IMG/VR virus record: IMGVR_UViG_2721755651_000007
DNA from: a virus
Lineage: Duplodnaviria > Heunggongvirae > Uroviricota > Caudoviricetes
Reading direction: 5' to 3' (one strand)
Length of the DNA stretch: 64,000 bases
Shown here in pieces: positions 770 through 55,538 of this stretch (positions within the stretch are counted from its first letter, which is position 1; every line of letters begins with the position of its first letter). The notes under the pieces were generated by a model. It was not told the origin of the DNA and did not search any database. It worked only from the letters and a program-made list of their open reading frames with translations. A program made the position numbers and the translations under genes.

Positions 770-1336
770 TCAAAAAGCAATAACTTTTTTCTCTATACCA
801 AAAGCCATAACCATTGGTTTGTACAAAATAAATTCTGCCACCTTTAGCCAATGCTCAATGCGTCTTTCACAGGTTCTTAAACTCCATTCCGGATGTGCAT
901 CATTCAGCAATTCAGCCATTTTGCGCTTAGTCATCCCCCGCCCCACATAACGCTGACTCAGAACATTGAGCAGCCCGGGATAACCTGCCAGTACTTCACC
1001 AATAACCCTATCGATTATTAACGCCTCTGAATCGGTACAATGTGCCAGCCAGCTTTTTTGATTGCCGTTGATCATATCCCGCAAAAAAGCCTCAAGTTCA
1101 GGTTTGTCCAGACCCGCTTTTTTCATCCTCCGGAGCGCCTCGTTAATTGCCGTTTTTGTCAGCTTTTTAGAGGTCAGTAATTGGTTGAACATATTTCCCG
1201 TCTTACCGTCGCCAATATACGACCAACGCCCCCACATACGCAGTTTCCCCTGGATCCAGACACTTTCCAGCGTTTTCAGGCGTAAATGCTCACCGCTTTT
1301 GCCTGTAATTTCCGGGTATATCATATTTATGCTCAC
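770..1336 (-). CDS. late-gene antiterminator Q-like protein
   Basis: 188 aa; position between rusA and late terminator; paralog 49211..49753; family assignment by position and recollection. Confidence 0.55.
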   Translation of the reverse strand: MSINMIYPEITGKSGEHLRLKTLESVWIQGKLRMWGRWSYIGDGKTGNMFNQLLTSKKLTKTAINEALRRMKKAGLDKPELEAFLRDMINGNQKSWLAHCTDSEALIIDRVIGEVLAGYPGLLNVLSQRYVGRGMTKRKMAELLNDAHPEWSLRTCERRIEHWLKVAEFILYKPMVMAFGIEKKVIAF

Positions 1337-3149: not shown

Positions 3150-3494
3150 TTACTTTAATAATTTCAGTGCCTTTACATCAACTTCAACACTGCTCAGGTC
3201 TTTATCAATTTCACCCTCAATTCTTACTTTGTCTTTCGGAGAAACATTCTGCCCGGCCCATACGCTGTCATCAATATCCGTGACAATTGTCCCGCTATTG
3301 TCACGAAACTCATAACGTTCATCACCCACTTTTTTAACGATGCTCCCTTCAAGGATAACCCATGCATCATCCTTCAGTTCTTTTGCCTGCGCTACTGTTG
3401 AACGCTCTGCTTCTGGCCCCTGGAAACCACCCTGCTGTGCAAAAGCGCCAAAAGACACACCGGAAATAAGTGCTGCAATCAATACCTTTTTCAT
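3150..3494 (-). CDS. YgiW/YdeI-family periplasmic OB-fold (BOF) protein, prophage cargo
   Basis: Signal peptide MKKVLIAALISGVSFGAFA; QGGFQGP...V.L.G.I.......F.D.SG.I.V.ID pattern typical of YgiW family. Confidence 0.7.
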   Translation of the reverse strand: MKKVLIAALISGVSFGAFAQQGGFQGPEAERSTVAQAKELKDDAWVILEGSIVKKVGDERYEFRDNSGTIVTDIDDSVWAGQNVSPKDKVRIEGEIDKDLSSVEVDVKALKLLK

Positions 3495-3613: not shown

Positions 3614-3769
3614 TTACTTCTCAGATTCGTAGTCTACGAAGACAGCGACCTCCGTCTGACCGGTTCGGATTCGCACCTCGCAGAGGTCTTTCCTCGTTAC
3701 CAGTGCCGTCACTATGACGGTTAAACAGATGACGATCAGGGCGATTAACATCGCCTTTTGCTGCTTCAT
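3614..3769 (-). CDS. hok: Hok-family type I toxin (HokD/RelF-like), with overlapping mok frame extending to 3826
   Basis: MKQQKAMLIALIVICLTVIVTALVTRKDLCEVRIRTGQTEVAVF matches Hok/Gef family; longer overlapping ORF 3614..3826 = mok-like. Confidence 0.9.
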   Translation of the reverse strand: MKQQKAMLIALIVICLTVIVTALVTRKDLCEVRIRTGQTEVAVFVDYESEK

Positions 3770-4059
3770 AGCCTGCTTCTCCTTGCCTTTCGGCACGTAA
3801 GAGGCTAACCTACATGTGTTCAGCATGGATTGAGCCTCAGATTAATGTTAAGCGTCTTGCAGGACGCGTAATGTTAACTGGGGCTTTTCTCTATCTGCCG
3901 TTGGTGTTCATGCCCGAGGCAGATAGCCTCAAGCACCCGCAGCAATTCTACTTAACTATCCTTTTCCCGCAAACCGTTTTTATCCCCAGCGGCAAATCGA
4001 ATACACCACCAGCGCCACCGCCATCGCAATTCCTACCGTTGTGAATGCTTCAGGCCAGG

Positions 4060-4617
4060 TCATTGATTCACCTCCTGCGGCGGTTCTGGTAGCGACATCC
4101 AGTGGGTTGCTTGCCTAAGATCATTACCCGGACTAACTGCTATACCTCCGCGCCGGAACGTGCCTCCGAGATAGCGTGCGGAATATATTAATGGCCCAGC
4201 CTCGCTATCGATATTCATCGAAATAAGCACGTTCTGGCTCTTTTCAGGCATTCGCTCAGTACAGCTTATCCAGCCATCCAGAGTTATCGGAGATCTGGTT
4301 GACGTTTCCGAGATTTCCCGAAAATTGTTGGTTGACGAATTCTTATTTTCCCGAAAGTTTCCGGCCTGAAGCATGGCGACGCGGCAGGCGTTCCAGCCAT
4401 CAGCATATGTTTTAGTTACACCGTCGAGATGGCAGGTAAGCAAATCCATTTCATCAGGCACTACCATTGCTATCGGCTCTGCTTCCAGTGATGCCAGCGC
4501 GATACGAAACACATTAGCCAGCAGGCTGTCTGAAGACTTGTTATCGTGCGCCGAGTCGCTCAGGAAGCCTGTGATGTATGATTTAATCTCCGCGCGTTCT
4601 CTGGTAATAGTGCTCAT
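4060..4617 (-). CDS. DUF551-like phage protein
   Basis: C-terminal THWMSLPEPPQ motif typical of DUF551. Confidence 0.55.
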   Translation of the reverse strand: MSTITRERAEIKSYITGFLSDSAHDNKSSDSLLANVFRIALASLEAEPIAMVVPDEMDLLTCHLDGVTKTYADGWNACRVAMLQAGNFRENKNSSTNNFREISETSTRSPITLDGWISCTERMPEKSQNVLISMNIDSEAGPLIYSARYLGGTFRRGGIAVSPGNDLRQATHWMSLPEPPQEVNQ

Positions 4618-4618
4618 A

Positions 4619-4837
4619 TCAGTTTTCCTTATACGGATTAATTTTATTGTGCAGTGCGCTGAATGATTCCCATGTCACATCGGTATATAGCTCAATAACT
4701 GGTTCAAATGTCCTTCCAATTATCCAGACCAGTAATAGCGGGGATATCGGTATCATCAACACTATAAACAGAATGAAAAACAGAAACTCTGTTGTTCTGC
4801 TCTTTCGTGGGTAATTTTTTTCTAAATAATGTTTCAT
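4619..4837 (-). CDS. small single-pass membrane protein, hypothetical
   Basis: 72 aa with hydrophobic FLFFILFIVLMIPISPLLLVWIIG segment. Confidence 0.35.
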   Translation of the reverse strand: MKHYLEKNYPRKSRTTEFLFFILFIVLMIPISPLLLVWIIGRTFEPVIELYTDVTWESFSALHNKINPYKEN

Positions 4838-4964
4838 TTCTTACCGCCCTTTCGGGCGGCCTCCTGATGTTCTGAGGGTGCAGGAATCCCTCCGGTTAAG
4901 GATTTAATAAAAATCGTTTCTGATTTAAATCTTCAGTATTTAGTTGTTAGTTGGTTTATCGCCT

Positions 4965-5276
4965 TTATGCTTCAGCCTTATTTCGCAACCAGACACAAAC
5001 CGGGCCATCTTCCGTATCATGAATGGAACCAATAAACCAGCCATCGCCCTCTGGTCGTTCCGGTTCCCATGCAGAAATATCAGCATCACACGCATCAAGG
5101 TCAGCACATCCTTCATCTCTGAAGCAGAGGACGTATTGAAGATTATTTTCCTCCATCCAGGCGTTAAACTCTTCCGTTGAAATATATTCCCGACCATCAC
5201 AGAATTTTTCATATTCAGGATGTGTCCAGTAGCCATATCCGTCACGAACTACCGGCATTTCTTTAATTTCACTCAC
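4965..5276 (-). CDS. acidic hypothetical phage protein
   Basis: 103 aa ORF, Cys/Asp/Glu rich; no family recognised. Confidence 0.4.
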   Translation of the reverse strand: MSEIKEMPVVRDGYGYWTHPEYEKFCDGREYISTEEFNAWMEENNLQYVLCFRDEGCADLDACDADISAWEPERPEGDGWFIGSIHDTEDGPVCVWLRNKAEA

Positions 5277-5496
5277 TGTTAACCTCCTGCAACGCTACAC
5301 GATACGCCTTCTTTATCCACGCCTTACTGCCATATAATTTCGTCTTCATAATAAACACACCTGCACGACTCGCCGATATCCCCGGACAGGTTAACAGCAC
5401 AGCATCCACCACACGGTTATGCTTCCGAAACTCCATTACAGTACTGCTGATAACCACCTGCCCCACCGGGCCGTAATCCTGATACAGGATTTTCAC
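5269..5496 (-). CDS. hypothetical protein
   Basis: 75 aa ORF, GTG start overlapping stop of IS-disrupted upstream gene. Confidence 0.35.
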   Translation of the reverse strand: MKILYQDYGPVGQVVISSTVMEFRKHNRVVDAVLLTCPGISASRAGVFIMKTKLYGSKAWIKKAYRVALQEVNSE

Positions 5497-5598
5497 GCAG
5501 ACACCCTCCTGTCGAAATAAACGTAGTTATTCACTATGCGCAGCGGCATGCCTAATTGAACCGCCCCGGGTTTCCTGGAGAGTGTTTTATCTGTGAAC

Positions 5599-6489
5599 TC
5601 AGGCTGCCAGATCATCGTTTCCGATGGAAGCATAATAAGCTTTTTCTGCTTCTGCCGGAGGAGTATGGCCCAGCCTTCCCAGCAATCGTCGATTGTTATA
5701 CCAGTCCACCCACGTTAGTGTGGCCAGTTCCACTTCTGCACGGTTTTTCCAGCTCTTACGGTGTATTACCTCCGCTTTGTAAAGACCATTGATGCTCTCA
5801 GCCATCGCGTTGTCATACGAGTCGCCTGTACTCCCTGTTGATGCCAGTAATCCGGCTTCTTTTAGTCGCTCCGTATAGGCCAGTGACACATACTGAGAGC
5901 CTTTATCGCTGTGATGGATGGTGCCAGACGGACGACGGGCCCACAACGCCTGCTCCAGCGCATCCAGCACGAATGTCGTTTCCATAGACGATGAGACCCG
6001 CCACCCCACGATGTATCCGGCAAACACATCAATGATAAACGCCACATAGACGAAGCCCTGCCATGTGCTGACGTAAGTAAAATCAGCCACCCACAGCTGG
6101 TCAGGTCGTTCTGCCACGAACTGACGGTTTACGCGGTCGCCTGCGGCAACGGCTTTCCGGCTGATGGTCGTACGGACCTTTTTACCCCGGAGAACACCGG
6201 CAAGTCCCATAACCGCCATGAGACGTGCCACTGTACATCTGGCCACCCTGATTCCTTCCCGTAACAACTGACGCCAGACTTTACGCACACCGTACACCTG
6301 ATGATTTTCATCGTATACGCGCTGTATCTCTCTCTTCAGCCAGTCGTCGTGCTGCGCACGGGCACTGCGTTTATCCGGATGATGTCGCTGTTGCTGACAA
6401 TGGTAATACGTTGACGGGGCAATATGCAGTTCGCTGCATACCGGTCCGACCCCGTACTGCTCACGCAGCTTATCCAGCAGTGGCATCAT
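5599..6489 (-). CDS. IS3-family transposase OrfB (DDE integrase domain)
   Basis: 296 aa; WVADFTYV...HSDKGSQY...YDNAMAES motifs. Confidence 0.9.
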
Positions 6490-6812
6490 TTTTTCCAGAG
6501 GCGGTCGAACTCCGCCTTCGCAAAATAAGCGGAAGCCTGGCGAAGGATATCGTTACTGCGGCGCAGTTCACGATTTTCACGTTCCAGCTCTTTCAGACGC
6601 TGACGTTCAGCGCTGGTGAGCCCACCATCACCGCCCCCGGTATCCCGCTCATGCTGGCGAACCCAGACACGCAGAGTCTCCGGCGTACAGCCAATCTTTG
6701 GGGCAATGGAACAAATTGCCGCCCACTGTGAGTCATATTCATCCTGACTTTCCAGAACCATACGAATCGCCCGCTGACGGACTTCGGGGGAAAAACGAGT
6801 ATTTTTAGTCAT
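6486..6812 (-). CDS. IS3-family transposase OrfA (HTH)
   Basis: 108 aa; overlaps orfB as expected for -1 frameshift fusion. Confidence 0.9.
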
Positions 6813-6866
6813 CCTGTTTACCTCTTTCTCAGGGAGTTTAGTCTCCAGGATTTCCGGGGCGGTTCA

Positions 6867-7087
6867 AATTTTCTGGCAATTTCCCTTCTTTGCATGCCTC
6901 TCTGATGCAGTTGCCGCGCCAGCTCAATATCACGCTGAGAATATTTTGCCGACGGGTGAAAATCACCACGTAACATCATGCTGATGCCCAGCTCCCGTGC
7001 CTTCGTTCTCACTGCCGCTTCAGTTCGTCCGATAAGTGCGCCAACGCTTTTTACCTTCATCGTTCCCGCACACTGCCGGAGTATCAT
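6867..7087 (-). pseudogene. small HTH-like gene interrupted by the IS insertion (3' end at 5497..5556)
   Basis: Frame MKVKSVGALIGRTEAAVRTKARELGI...REIARK runs into IS end; joining flanks across the target duplication restores an ORF ending just before 5496. Confidence 0.5.
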
Positions 7088-7119: not shown

Positions 7120-7854
7120 TCACCGCTGCTGTTCTCTGGTGGCGGTAATATCCCGGAGAATATCCCGGCACTTGTTCAGCTCCCGCAGCGCGGCGCAGAC
7201 TCGCTCCCACTTCTGAACCTGACCTTTTGCCCGGCGCAGCTCGCGGTTAGCCACATGCAGCGATGGTAAAATCAGACCATCCGGATGCTTTCTGGTGAAC
7301 GACGGCTGTGACTGCACTGTGACCGCCACACTTTCCGTTTTTATTTCTTCCTGTGTTTCCGCTTCCCCGACTGGTAACGCAACACCTGCTGGCTGAGGAA
7401 AGGCTTTACCATCCGTTTCCGTTATGGATGCGGCTTTCGGCTCTGCCGGTAAATCAGCGCCCGGTATGCAGTACCGAAATTTACCGCCCTGATTCACGCG
7501 AATCAGACGCCCTTTGCTGATTGCCATGGCCAGTGATGAATTCGCCCGGCGGGAGGTAATCCCGAACATCAGTGCCAGCTCATCCGCCGTTTGTGGGCCA
7601 TGATGTTCAATCGCCTCAGTCAGCATTTGCGCTGTCACTTTCGGTACCGGTGACACTGGTTCACTTTCACCAGTCTGAGTCAGCCACCACATCGACCCCT
7701 TGTTATCCGCTTCACCACGGCGCTTCAGTTTCCACAGTTCGTTGACAGCATCTTCGCGGCTGATTCCAAGGCGCGATGCCACTACCTGTGAAGAGGCTTT
7801 TTTCAGTGCTTTCAGTGCGTCAAATACGGTTTCCATTAATATTTCCTCCGACAA
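7120..7854 (-). CDS. conserved prophage hypothetical protein downstream of P (DUF1627-like by recollection)
   Basis: 244 aa; paralog 54105..54686. Confidence 0.45.
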
Positions 7855-7869
7855 AATCGTTTCTCAGAT

Positions 7870-8532
7870 TCAAATAAAACCAGCTGCCTTCCGGCGTTCG
7901 TATTCCTGTTTCAGCCGTTCAATTGGCGTTGGCCCTTGCGGGTGTTTCGCCCCTTCCAGTTGTCGTCGCACTGGCGGAACACTCATCCCGTTACCAACAT
8001 GCTTTGCCCATTTCGTCAGTTGCCGTTCCGCAAGTCGTTTTAACTCACCTTGCGTCATCTGGCGCTCAATCCCTCTGGTACGCATTTCGAGGCAGATGTG
8101 GTACAGCACAGGCTGTGGCCACGGGTATTTATCACTCCCGTCGTATCGCCAGGATTCATTGCGCCAGCGCCGGTACTCTTCCATCACGGCATCCACCGTA
8201 AGACCAAATGGATTTGCCCCACTCTCCGAAATCAGCGCAACAAACTCAGCCAGGTCCGGGGGCCACGTTTCACCCGCCCGGCAGCGGTCCATGCACTGAC
8301 GGCACACCAGACGGATTTGCTGTTCAGTCATCGCACCAATCTGGGCAATCCAGAGCTTCGAAGGTGCGGCCCCGTTCTTCTGAGTCCAGCGGTTCGAATA
8401 CACCTCCCCCATGAGCTCCCACAGCTTCCAGGCCGTTTCCGTTGCTGATAAATCCGTTGTCACGTTCCCACTGTTCGCGTGCAGCCCGGATTTCCTGAAC
8501 TGCCCGTGATGCCGTGCCACCTGATGCTGCAT
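7870..8532 (-). CDS. replication protein P-like (helicase loader)
   Basis: Resembles lambda P incl. YPW..Y/H....LEMR region; N-terminal ~200 nt overlap O frame, start uncertain. Confidence 0.55.
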   Translation of the reverse strand: MQHQVARHHGQFRKSGLHANSGNVTTDLSATETAWKLWELMGEVYSNRWTQKNGAAPSKLWIAQIGAMTEQQIRLVCRQCMDRCRAGETWPPDLAEFVALISESGANPFGLTVDAVMEEYRRWRNESWRYDGSDKYPWPQPVLYHICLEMRTRGIERQMTQGELKRLAERQLTKWAKHVGNGMSVPPVRRQLEGAKHPQGPTPIERLKQEYERRKAAGFI

Positions 8533-52486: not shown

Positions 52487-53245
52487 TCAAGTGCCTTTCC
52501 TGGTCCAGCCATATTTTTTGAATGCAGGCGCCGCTTCATCGGTTTGTAGCCATTCTGCAAATCGACGGGTTTCATCATTTGCATCCTGACGTACTGTAAT
52601 GTTCATATCACGCCATATCACGTAGTCTGGCGCTATTTCCACGACATCACCAATTTCTGGATTACTGGCTGCCCAGTCAGCCCAGGTTATCCAGACATCT
52701 GCTCCAGGCTGATTCTCAAGAGCCTTACGTGCAGTTCCGCTATTGGGCGCATATAAAATAATATTTTTTCGGATTGCGGCGACAGTTTCTATATTCCCTT
52801 TACGTCCGGCAATATCTTCCCAGACGCCAGTGCCTGATGTATTACTGGTACCACCACCATCATTAACAATTACGCCAATCCCAGGTCTGGTCAGGTCGTC
52901 AATACTCCGGATATTTTTAGGATTACCTTTCTTTACCAGTAAAATACTTTTTCGCAGATAAAGAGGCTGAATATCTTTTTCACTGAAGCTGTCTTTATGG
53001 TCCCGAATGATAGCCAGAGCAGATTGTTCTGATGCGCCAAACAAGATATCTGCATTTTTTTTGGCATCTTCATTCCATTTGTTCTGTGGGCCGTAATGAA
53101 CGTTCACTATAATACCTGTTTTTTCGGCATAAAGTTTGGCTGCATCAAGCAAGGCTGTATGCGGGCCACCAGGACCATACAGATTGATATCAGCATAAGC
53201 AGCAGAAGACAGGAATATTAAAAAACCTGCCATTATGTTCCTCAT
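52487..53245 (-). CDS. orphan ModA/WtpA-like periplasmic anion-binding protein, prophage cargo
   Basis: Signal peptide; PBP type II pattern resembling ModA (...ADILFGASEQ..., ...AAPAFKKYGW...); no adjacent permease/ATPase. Confidence 0.5.
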   Translation of the reverse strand: MRNIMAGFLIFLSSAAYADINLYGPGGPHTALLDAAKLYAEKTGIIVNVHYGPQNKWNEDAKKNADILFGASEQSALAIIRDHKDSFSEKDIQPLYLRKSILLVKKGNPKNIRSIDDLTRPGIGVIVNDGGGTSNTSGTGVWEDIAGRKGNIETVAAIRKNIILYAPNSGTARKALENQPGADVWITWADWAASNPEIGDVVEIAPDYVIWRDMNITVRQDANDETRRFAEWLQTDEAAPAFKKYGWTRKGT

Positions 53246-54104
53246 AAAAAACTCCTTTTATTGGTTATCATGAAATAAAGTTATAAACACTACAAATAAT
53301 ATATATTACATCCAGATAAACTTATCCGACTTTACCTCGTGCATAGCTTGTTATTTAAAGTCAACAAAATAAGGAAAATTATACGCATATTGAAGAGTAT
53401 AAACCTTACATGTTGATTACATTTTTGTAATCAACATCCTGTTTGGAATAGCCAGCCTTTAATGGATAACTATTTCTGACAATGCAATGAGTATAATCAA
53501 GTCCATCTTCCACTGAGAATTAGAGGCGGCATGCTTTTTCCGGCTCTTGCCGGATATCCGTAATTGTCCATAATCTGCAGATTTATACCTTCTGCATGAC
53601 CTGTCAGCGAAAATTTGTCCGGTGTTTCTACGGGAATGACATCAAAAGTTACACGCACTCGCGTTACCGTGTAGACCTACTTTCCTGCACTTGCAAGATC
53701 ACAGTGGTGTAACCGTAACAGGAATTTATTCTCTGGACCGGCAGTAAATCCCTGAGTGGCGTGGTTCCCATATCAATTTCCCGCCAGGCAGCCTCCATTG
53801 CCAGCGTACAGGCTGGAGCCATGACCTGCCCTTTAAATCTGGCCCGACCATCCCACCGGACGTGTTCTTCTCCCCTGAACTTAGGTACAGTCATCTCCAG
53901 TGGCACAAAAGTGTCAGCGCCATAATTTTTGACCGTTATCGCGCTACGGATATTTTGTTGACTGGTGAAAATCACCCCGCAGAATCAGGCTTATTCCCTT
54001 AACCTGGGCTTTCATCCTGACCGCCGCCTCACTACGACCAATCAGACTGCCGATGCATTTTACCTTCATTGTTAGTATCATGATTTCAGGCCTGCACCAT
54101 CCGC

Positions 54105-54686
54105 TCATTGCCCGGACTTCCGACAAATCCCGGCAACCATATCCCGGTGCTTGTTCAGCTCCCGCAGCGCGGCGCAGACTCGCTCCCACTTCTGGACATG
54201 ATTCTTCGCCCTACGCAGTTCGCGATTTGCCATATGCAGCGATGGCAAAATCAAATCATCTTCTCGCGTTGCAGTAAACGATGGCAGCGACTGCACAATG
54301 TCCGCCACAGTTTCTGTTTTAATATCTTCCTGTGTTGCATCTTTCTGTACCGGTAACGCAACACCGGCTGGCTGAGGAAAGGCTTTACCATCGGTTTCCG
54401 CTACCGATTCAACTTTCGGCTCTGCTGGTAAATTATCACCTGGTATGCAGTAACGAATTTTACCGTTCTGGTTTACGCGAATCAGACGACCTTTGCTGAT
54501 TGCCATTGCCAGCGTTGAAGCAACTTTGCGGGATGTTGTACCGAACAGCGTAGCCAGTTCATCCGCCGTTTGTGGTCCGCGTTGTTCAATCGTCGCGGTT
54601 AAATCGCACTCTGAGATTTTCGCTTCTGTTGCCGTGGTGGTTTCTTCTGGCGCTGGCTGTTCCTGCTGAACGTTGTTATCAGCCAC
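54105..54686 (-). CDS. conserved prophage hypothetical protein (paralog of 7120..7854)
   Basis: 193 aa, shared C-terminal region with paralog. Confidence 0.45.
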
Positions 54687-54872
54687 ACGCCAGGTGTATA
54701 CGCTTTTATCAACGAAGCCAGCCTTTTTCAGTTCCCACAGCTCGTTCAGTACTTCTTCACGACTGATATCAAGTCGCGCAGCCAGCTATACCGACGTGGC
54801 TTTTCCCATCGCTTTCAGTGCGTCAAAAACAGTCTCCATAAATTTCCTCCCGGTAAAAAATCACTTCTCAAC

Positions 54873-55538
54873 TCAAACAAAACCAGCCGCTTTCCGGCGT
54901 TCATATTCCTGTTTCAGCAACTCAATTGGCGTTGGCCCCGACGGGCGTTTGGGGGCCGCCAGTTGTCGCCGGACTGGCGGAACGCTCAGGCCGTTACTAA
55001 CATGCTTTGCCCATTTCGTCAGTTGCCGTTCTGCAAGCCGTTTTAATTCCCCTTCGGTCATCTGGCGCTCAATCCCCTTTGAACGCATCTCGAGGCAAAT
55101 GTGATACAGCACAGGCTGAGACCACGGGTACTTATCACTTCCGTCGTATCGCCAGGACTCATTGCGCCAGCGGCGGTACTCCTCCATCACAGCATCCACC
55201 GTCAGACCGAATGGATTGGCTCCGCTTTTCGAAATCAGTGCCACAAACTCAGCCAGGTCCGGAGGCCATGTTTCACCCGCCCGGCAGCGGTCCATGCACT
55301 GGCGGCAGACCTGCCGGATTTGCTGCTCAGTCATCGCGCCAATCTGTGCAATCCAGAGCTTCGAAGGTGCGGCCCCGTTCTTCTGGATCCAGCGGTTCGA
55401 ATAAACCACCCCCATGAGTTCCCACAGCTTCCAGGCCGTTTCCGTCGCTGATAAATCCGTTTTCACGTTCCCACTGCTCACGTGCTGCCCGAATTTCCTG
55501 AACTGCCCGTGATGCGGTGCCACCTGGTGCTGCTGCAT
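54873..55538 (-). CDS. replication protein P-like
   Basis: 221 aa paralog of 7870..8532. Confidence 0.55.
   Translation of the reverse strand: MQQHQVAPHHGQFRKFGQHVSSGNVKTDLSATETAWKLWELMGVVYSNRWIQKNGAAPSKLWIAQIGAMTEQQIRQVCRQCMDRCRAGETWPPDLAEFVALISKSGANPFGLTVDAVMEEYRRWRNESWRYDGSDKYPWSQPVLYHICLEMRSKGIERQMTEGELKRLAERQLTKWAKHVSNGLSVPPVRRQLAAPKRPSGPTPIELLKQEYERRKAAGFV

Follow-up and report, generated by a model that had tools for sequence, protein, structure and literature searches.

Three adjacent small genes in the nin region of an Stx-phage-like prophage are probably unrelated accessory genes, each exchanged alone

Introduction

The nin region of lambdoid phages has long been known for its shuffled accessory genes. 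The ninA-I genes and orf60a/61/63/73 of lambda and the eaA-eaI genes of P22 are small, non-essential, tightly packed early genes, and the genes of the nin, exo-xis and ea regions of these phages are single-gene cassettes exchanged at gene boundaries, either between P and Q or in the stretch from the recombination genes to xis/int. Three small genes that are likened here to both groups, namely orf75, orf103 and a DUF4014 gene, lie at 4619-5496 of the 64,000-nucleotide stretch of IMG/VR record IMGVR_UViG_2721755651_000007, hereafter called the window. A first-pass annotation had described them as a cluster of uncharacterised open reading frames (ORFs) in the nin region of one prophage of the window (prophage A), lacking from a second one (prophage B), and had expected anti-defence or exclusion functions. 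The present analysis indicates that they are probably unrelated early accessory genes of the nin region, each exchanged alone and expressed as delayed-early genes from the promoter pR.

Comparison with described proteins sets further limits. The three genes have no homology to those named nin or exo-xis genes whose activity is known, among them NinB/Orf, NinG/Rap, the NinI phosphatase, RusA and the TraR-like Orf73. The orf103 domain is found fused to zinc ribbons of the Lar type (Lar of the Rac prophage, with Ral as the lambda counterpart) and occupies a ral-like or Lar-adjacent position in phages mEp213 and PY54, whereas orf103 itself lacks both a Lar domain (no Pfam match at E-value ≤0.1) and a zinc ribbon and resembles Lar neither in sequence nor in fold. 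Like Ocr, ArdA, Arn and T7 gp5.9, orf103 is small and strongly acidic and is carried by mobile elements in early-expressed regions. The DUF4014 gene belongs to the same Pfam family as epsilon15 gp46 and g341c gp23 and, like them, stands directly upstream of an EaA-type gene; the inhibitor label of epsilon15 gp46 is missing from its current record, and no experiment in favour of that label was found. As to functions of comparable genes, a report on 196 enterobacteriophage accessory genes (PMC12373910) describes Gnarl1-3, phage accessory proteins of 40-90 amino acids (aa) that remodel the O-antigen, and states that the accessory genes of the screen often target surface barriers or restriction enzymes.

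Independent assortment of the three genes

The three ORFs of 75, 103 and 72 aa were found as announced by the first-pass annotation, all on the minus strand, together with a spacer of some length ahead of the third:

5269-5496, minus strand: orf75, 75 aa, GTG start, basic, isoelectric point (pI) 9.8, family phrog_1001, without a Pfam model
4965-5276, minus strand: orf103, 103 aa, GTG start, acidic, pI 4.1, family phrog_1372, without a Pfam model
4838-4964, minus strand: spacer and leader of the DUF4014 gene, 127 nucleotides (nt)
4619-4837, minus strand: DUF4014 gene, 72 aa, ATG start, Pfam PF13198, family phrog_1832

Their distribution suggests that they are three unrelated single-gene cassettes, independently shuffled and joined at gene boundaries, and not one system. 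In a megablast search of 5426 complete Escherichia coli genomes, orf75 was present in 529, orf103 in 780 and the DUF4014 gene in 963. About 500 of the matches of each gene belong to a block that is at least 99% identical, and the whole 1.6-kb stretch was recovered in 499 of the 5426 genomes; the block thus appears to be one recently spread segment, each of whose genes also occurs elsewhere alone. Among IMG/VR prophage contigs every partial combination is present, such as orf75 and hok without orf103 and DUF4014, orf75, orf103 and DUF551 without DUF4014, and, in many contigs, DUF4014, DUF551 and hok without orf75 or orf103. At larger distances the association disappears altogether: neither partner gene lies within 4 kb of orf75 at 28 distant loci (identity under 70%), or of orf103 at 29 loci in other genera (Atlantibacter to Achromobacter, Shewanella).

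The families are also not bound to the nin region, since they occur either there or in the early-left (exo-xis/ea) region. The DUF4014 gene corresponds to L0067 of phage 933W, upstream of L0066 and of the EaA/DUF551 gene L0065, and the orf75 family is represented by STM0896.1n of Fels-1, near xis/int. Members of the orf103 family are rac22 of Rac-SA53 (nin region), mEp213_045 (between N and cIII), PY54 ORF48 and orf96 of D6. DNA matches end at gene boundaries, that of Rac-SA53 covering 4844-5275 and that of phage ArgO145 covering 4619-4908. The only recurrent linkage is that of a DUF4014 gene followed by a DUF551-type gene, also seen in genes 23-22 of g341c; a DUF551 domain is encoded within 1.5 kb downstream at 27 of the 44 divergent DUF4014 loci with enough downstream DNA, which are not independent of one another.

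The term 'cluster' used in the first-pass annotation is therefore apt for three adjacent, variable genes and misleading as the name of a unit: the families are unrelated and, because each gene assorts alone, a functional cluster is not indicated. A pairing of orf75 with the product of the helix-turn-helix (HTH) gene directly upstream was considered as well and rejected, that gene being found at none of 30 distant orf75 loci. As a separate observation, the E. coli DUF4014 cassette has a DNA match of 87.5% identity at 11347-12562 of PP818812.1 (Actinobacillus phage vB_Apl-pPE4), whose recorded host is Actinobacillus pleuropneumoniae; such a cassette is unexpected in a phage of Pasteurellaceae and could reflect a recent transfer or a mis-assigned host.

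Conservation and translation signals

Conservation and ribosome-binding sites, the lack of which would in the view of the first-pass annotation have spoken against the ORFs, are both in evidence, in the form of profile matches, low ratios of nonsynonymous to synonymous substitutions (dN/dS) and an AGGAGG sequence at all three genes. Residues 1-74 of orf75 align to positions 1-74 of the 75 of phrog_1001 (E = 8.3e-38) and residues 1-102 of orf103 to positions 55-158 of the 194 of phrog_1372 (E = 4.1e-56), both families being without an annotated function; the DUF4014 protein matches PF13198 over its full length (residues 1-72 on profile positions 1-72 of 72) with 87.2 bits, the gathering threshold being 23.2. 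The dN/dS values, computed by the Nei-Gojobori method against distinct homologous coding sequences from the fetched loci, were 0.09-0.29 for orf75 (in a comparison reaching a dS of about 2), 0.25-0.32 for orf103 and 0.20-0.23 for DUF4014. Members of the three families come from several orders and from two classes of Proteobacteria.

Translation signals are closely spaced. The GTG of orf75 overlaps the stop codon of the HTH gene by 4 nt (GTGA) and is preceded, 8 nt before the start, by the Shine-Dalgarno (SD) sequence AGGAGG at 5510-5505. Likewise, the GTG of orf103 overlaps the stop codon of orf75 by 8 nt, with AGGAGG at 5288-5283, 6 nt before the start. At the other end, the DUF4014 stop codon lies 1 nt ahead of the ATG of the DUF551 gene, which appears to be translationally coupled to it. 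Taken as a whole, these features mark the three ORFs as real, conserved and translatable genes.

That they are instead chance or decaying reading frames without function has next to no probability. Their GTG starts and small sizes, and an insertion sequence (IS) upstream that suggests a degrading prophage, could be read in this way, but dN/dS lies well under 1 at dS values of up to about 2, the families extend over the orders and classes just mentioned, the AlphaFold2 (AF2) models are confident and strong SD sites stand in front of all three.

Gene order and prophage context

Over this stretch the window and E. coli strain 319 are 100% identical, and the block, with the IS left aside, matches many O157, O26 and other Shiga toxin-producing E. 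coli (STEC) genomes at 100% identity. The host prophage is lambdoid, Stx-phage-like and of E. coli O157-type strains. Its other features that bear on the three genes are the following:

7870-8532, minus strand: P (replication gene)
7120-7854, minus strand: DUF1627 gene
about 6867-7087, minus strand: 5′ part of the split HTH gene
5557-6866, minus strand: IS1203/IS629, 1310 bp, with the target duplication AAT at 5554-5556 and 6867-6869
5493-5556, minus strand: 3′ remnant of the split HTH gene ('DNA-binding protein')
4060-4617, minus strand: DUF551-domain gene, 185 aa, Pfam DUF551
3764-3938, minus strand: sok, Rfam match
3614-3826, minus strand: hok/mok
3150-3494, minus strand: YgiW gene
770-1336, minus strand: DUF1133/Phage_antitermQ gene (Q-like antiterminator)

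The order of the minus-strand operon is P, DUF1627, the 93-aa HTH gene, orf75, orf103, DUF4014, DUF551, hok/sok, YgiW, a 90-aa ORF, DUF968, RusA and the DUF1133/Q-like gene. The three genes thus lie between P and a Q-like gene on the strand transcribed from pR. This gene order and the comparison of loci bear out both the assignment to the nin region and its variability between prophages that the first-pass annotation had proposed, as well as the presence of DUF551 and hok downstream (4060-4617 and 3614-3826).

Prophage B retains homologues of several of the flanking genes:

54876-55532: P homologue
54126-54842: DUF1627 homologue
52487-53245, minus strand: solute-binding protein gene, 252 aa, secreted, Pfam SBP_bac_11 (E = 5e-34)
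51999-52208: hok homologue

The statement that the three genes have no counterpart in prophage B holds, as tblastn with the three ORFs returned no homologue there; the equivalent position is occupied by the SBP_bac_11 gene and ORF fragments. At 53497-53975 (minus strand) of prophage B, two short ORFs without a family match adjoin the HTH gene in truncated form (53944-54189).

None of the three genes is new to the databases. They are already catalogued in RefSeq, PHROGs and Pfam (DUF4014), the RefSeq entries being WP_000699809 for orf75 and WP_001289673 for orf103, both hypothetical, and WP_000683609 for the DUF4014 family protein. A literature search for DUF4014, the WP accessions and peptide strings found no papers.

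Rfam families are absent from the three-gene stretch. Elsewhere in the window, the other Rfam matches at the gathering score comprise sok at 52149-52298 (minus strand) beside the second hok, DicF at 12461-12512 (plus strand) and, at 46911-47180 and 47293-47522 (minus strand), STnc100 overlapping or adjoining the anti-GcvB small RNA AgvB, together with two tRNAs. All of these are known prophage-borne RNAs.

Upstream insertion sequence and expression

Lying in the orientation of the operon, IS1203/IS629 interrupts the 93-aa HTH gene at a point 61 bp upstream of orf75; an ALIL frameshift pseudoknot is recognised by Rfam within it, at 6415-6531. Most other genomes that carry the block have no such insertion; the annotation of strain 319 was set against that of one of the uninterrupted strains, E2865. 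A simple consensus search of the coding strand over 4619-5496 found no promoter or terminator consensus. Since no promoter belonging to the genes themselves is recognisable and they abut or overlap their neighbours, the three proteins would be delayed-early products of the pR transcript, formed upon induction or infection. In the present copy IS1203 probably cuts the three genes off from pR and is polar on nin-region genes, because it lies directly upstream and no promoter consensus was detected between it and the genes. Their variable presence among related prophages argues for their being dispensable for growth.

The orf103 protein and its domain family

One of the three ORFs had been called acidic and Cys-rich in the first-pass annotation, and the 103-aa protein is indeed acidic (pI 4.1, with 25 Asp and Glu against 8 Lys and Arg, that is, a net charge of about -17). 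The description as Cys-rich is correct as to the five Cys of orf103 itself and does not extend to the family, in which conservation is confined to C26 (in at least 90% of sequences) and C94 (without exception among close relatives), and both are replaced in wider members. A zinc site made of H19, C26, H86 and C94 was dropped for this reason, the Cys being replaced in wider members such as P0335. The idea of a diverged DUF551 paralogue was likewise rejected (hhalign probability 0.5%, no Pfam DUF551 match). No solved structure matched the orf103 fold.

The domain defines a large family (759 clusters at 50% identity) that has no Pfam model. Carriers of the domain include phages of Enterobacterales, Burkholderia, Pseudomonas and Vibrio, as well as F-type tra operons and a P1-like phage-plasmid. 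Among the 148 top-ranking representatives about half (74) have at least 160 aa and are thus extended or multi-domain. Among these 74, Lar_restr_allev is fused to the orf103 domain in three, above the gathering score and in three lineages, with Lar at the N-terminus of P0278 and P0342 and at the C-terminus of P0373, so that both domain orders exist. This link between Lar and the orf103 domain appears to be real but rare. Other partners are a DHH/DHHA1 phosphoesterase (P0306), an Rv2179c-like exoribonuclease (twice), RdgC (once) and a Tad2-like domain (once), while most extensions have no Pfam domain. Among the latter, the long members P0335 and P0338 share a conserved C-terminal Cys-rich motif, CxCxxCGC..HACVNE...CSQC, without a Pfam match.

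The genes surrounding the domain are those of mobile elements. At the 29 orf103 genome loci (a sample of about 110 neighbouring ORFs) they encode integrase, excisionase, TraR/DksA zinc fingers, ParB-HTH, RecT and Ead/Ea22, as well as DNA methyltransferases of three kinds (Dam, C5 and MT-A70); at three of the loci the neighbours belong to an F-type transfer operon (traU and traN). In loci L025, L027 and L033 the homologue is found at about 4001-4300, directly upstream of traU; D6 (L195), a P1-like phage-plasmid, has one at 4001-4312 of L195, within its accessory region, with a 151-aa DUF4014 protein encoded 3 kb away. The operon of PY54 ORF48 includes a Lar-like gene and a DNA methyltransferase gene. 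In mEp213 (L193), where the family member lies at 2501-2824, two N-like genes occur in tandem; the interval between N and cIII in which mEp213_045 stands is the place of ral/sieB in lambda. At the protein level, orf103 may be a soluble acidic module for binding or inhibition, aimed at a host or defence protein.

The DUF4014 protein, its labels and its leader

The first-pass annotation had called one of the three ORFs a membrane protein, in agreement with the strong hydrophobicity of residues 19-37 of the 72-aa protein (mean Kyte-Doolittle hydropathy 2.9) and with its single predicted transmembrane helix at about residues 18-40. The N-terminus is basic (K.YPR.SR) and would be cytoplasmic by the positive-inside rule; the C-terminal motif LHNKxNPYxE is invariant and also present in epsilon15 gp46, and this tail is probably periplasmic. 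The protein may thus be a small inner-membrane protein with its N-terminus inside and a conserved tail acting at the envelope, often paired with EaA/DUF551. It shares 50% identity over 72 aa with epsilon15 gp46, and 47-50% with epsilon15 gp46 and g341c gp23.

Functional names attached to this family call for caution. The label 'O-polysaccharide acetyltransferase inhibitor', carried by g341c gp23, phage P6 and ArgO145, was traced to an old RefSeq name of epsilon15 gp46, and the note in the g341c record quotes 'acetyltransferase inhibitor protein epsilon15p46'. In its current form the epsilon15 record (AY150271.2) has gp46 as a hypothetical protein, and the inhibitor label appears to have been withdrawn. 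A second name used in RefSeq, 'released from the phage upon host infection', was traced to no source in the literature search. Records with DUF4014 proteins under names propagated by similarity are AY150271.2 (gp46), FJ000341.1 (gene 23), KY914478.1, OP265889.1, NC_000924.1 and NC_006949.1.

The leader of the DUF4014 gene has an unusual layout. Its AGGAGG, at 4865-4860, is 22 nt ahead of the AUG at 4837, and between the two, at 4860-4843, a GC hairpin of 7 bp with a GAAA loop can be drawn, followed by 5 nt up to the AUG; another hairpin (hairpin 1) is located at 4892-4874. The fold energy of the leader is -25.4 kcal/mol (z -2.3). Hairpin-bridged split ribosome-binding sites are of a kind described for T4 gene 38, and the DUF4014 leader looks like one of them, as the hairpin would reduce the distance between the SD sequence and the AUG to about 5 nt. 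Conservation of the element TCAGGAGGCCGCCCGAAAGGGCGGTAA extends to DUF4014 genes whose upstream neighbours are not the same, and in one variant (L072) a G-U pair maintains the pairing. The leader at 4838-4964 has no Rfam match, and within this interval falls the mosaic joint between the orf103 and DUF4014 cassettes.

The orf75 protein

An initial search for homologues of orf75 yielded only nine fragments; a profile built from locus-derived homologues retrieved 984 proteins. The fold is modelled as a generic ACT/ferredoxin-like alpha-beta sandwich, and the nearest known folds for comparison are ACT, permuted-BMC and ferredoxin-like sandwiches. As for its role, orf75 may be a small ACT-like protein of the alpha/beta type that probably forms oligomers and has a ligand or a partner to bind.

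Functional readings and their weight

Because accessory genes in the 196-gene screen often act on surface barriers or restriction enzymes, the general expectation of an anti-defence or exclusion role is reasonable, and for the three genes such a role is plausible. This part of the first-pass annotation stands as a general expectation only, as no match in PADLOC, Pfam, NCBIfam or the PDB assigns a function. PADLOC-DB contains no family matching the three ORFs or DUF551 at E ≤0.1, Pfam and NCBIfam return nothing for the three except DUF4014, and sequence and profile searches of the PDB with orf75 and orf103 give chance-level matches only. In the accessible supplementary tables of PMC12373910, the orf75, orf103 and DUF4014 peptides have no match.

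For orf103, counter-restriction is the best single guess, if a tentative one. The domain might, at a similarly low degree of confidence, be an unrecognised counter-defence module of mobile elements, for which the role of restriction-alleviation partner or adaptor is the most plausible because Lar zinc ribbons are fused to it in both domain orders. In its full form, that orf103 is an anti-restriction or restriction-alleviation factor acting like or with Lar/Ral-type proteins, the other two genes being unrelated cargo, the proposal is unlikely. It can draw on the Lar_restr_allev fusions of P0278, P0342 and P0373, on the Tad2-like and DHH/DHHA1 fusions (one each), on the company of a Lar-like gene and a methyltransferase gene in the PY54 operon, on the ral-like position of mEp213_045, and on the strong acidity, the methylase neighbours and the presence in tra operons and in D6. 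Yet Lar fusions are rare, a weak home-made model found no Lar-like ORF near the 29 loci, most fusion partners have no Pfam domain and the orf103 peptide does not appear in the supplementary tables of the 196-gene screen, as far as these were accessible. Quite improbable is a reading of the DUF4014 protein as a membrane effector that alters the envelope, by a block of O-antigen O-acetylation or by superinfection exclusion, in the manner of small seroconversion factors. Its identity to epsilon15 gp46 and g341c gp23 with the inhibitor note of the latter, the one transmembrane helix with the invariant tail, and the precedent of Gnarl1-3 (PMC12373910) are set against the present 'hypothetical' status of gp46, the frequency of the family in Stx phages, ES18 and D6 without annotated seroconversion, a 'released from the phage' label without a traceable source and the lack of similarity to the Gnarl data sets.

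It is very unlikely that the three genes, possibly with DUF551, form a co-adapted module such as a small defence, exclusion or toxin-antitoxin-like system. Tight packing with translational coupling, an identical block in about 500 genomes of several STEC serotypes and the adjoining hok/sok would fit a module, but all partial combinations occur among close relatives, distant homologues are never together, PADLOC matches are zero, and the block identity of at least 99% points to recent common descent and not to selection for linkage. The preferred reading remains that of unrelated accessory genes, each exchanged alone and transcribed from pR. Some results weigh against it or against the Lar link drawn for orf103. 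Searches of PADLOC, Pfam, NCBIfam and PDB sequences, together with fold and BFVD searches, assign a function to none of the three. The tight coupling of orf75 with orf103 and of DUF4014 with DUF551 in the block could reflect cooperation in this lineage. The promoter scan, being a simple consensus search, may miss weak or non-sigma-70 promoters or an outward promoter of the IS. The link to Lar is thin (three of the 74 long representatives), and no Lar-like ORF was detected within 4 kb of the 29 orf103 loci with a weak home-made hidden Markov model.

Significance

The analysis removes the idea of a three-gene system, and it flags two unsupported names propagated among DUF4014 proteins, 'acetyltransferase inhibitor' and 'released from the phage upon host infection'. 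Little changes otherwise, the genes encoding catalogued hypothetical proteins and the present copy being probably silenced by the IS. The one worthwhile target for experiments is the orf103 domain, whose large family has no Pfam model and which is, in rare cases, fused to a Lar, a Tad2-like or a phosphoesterase domain.

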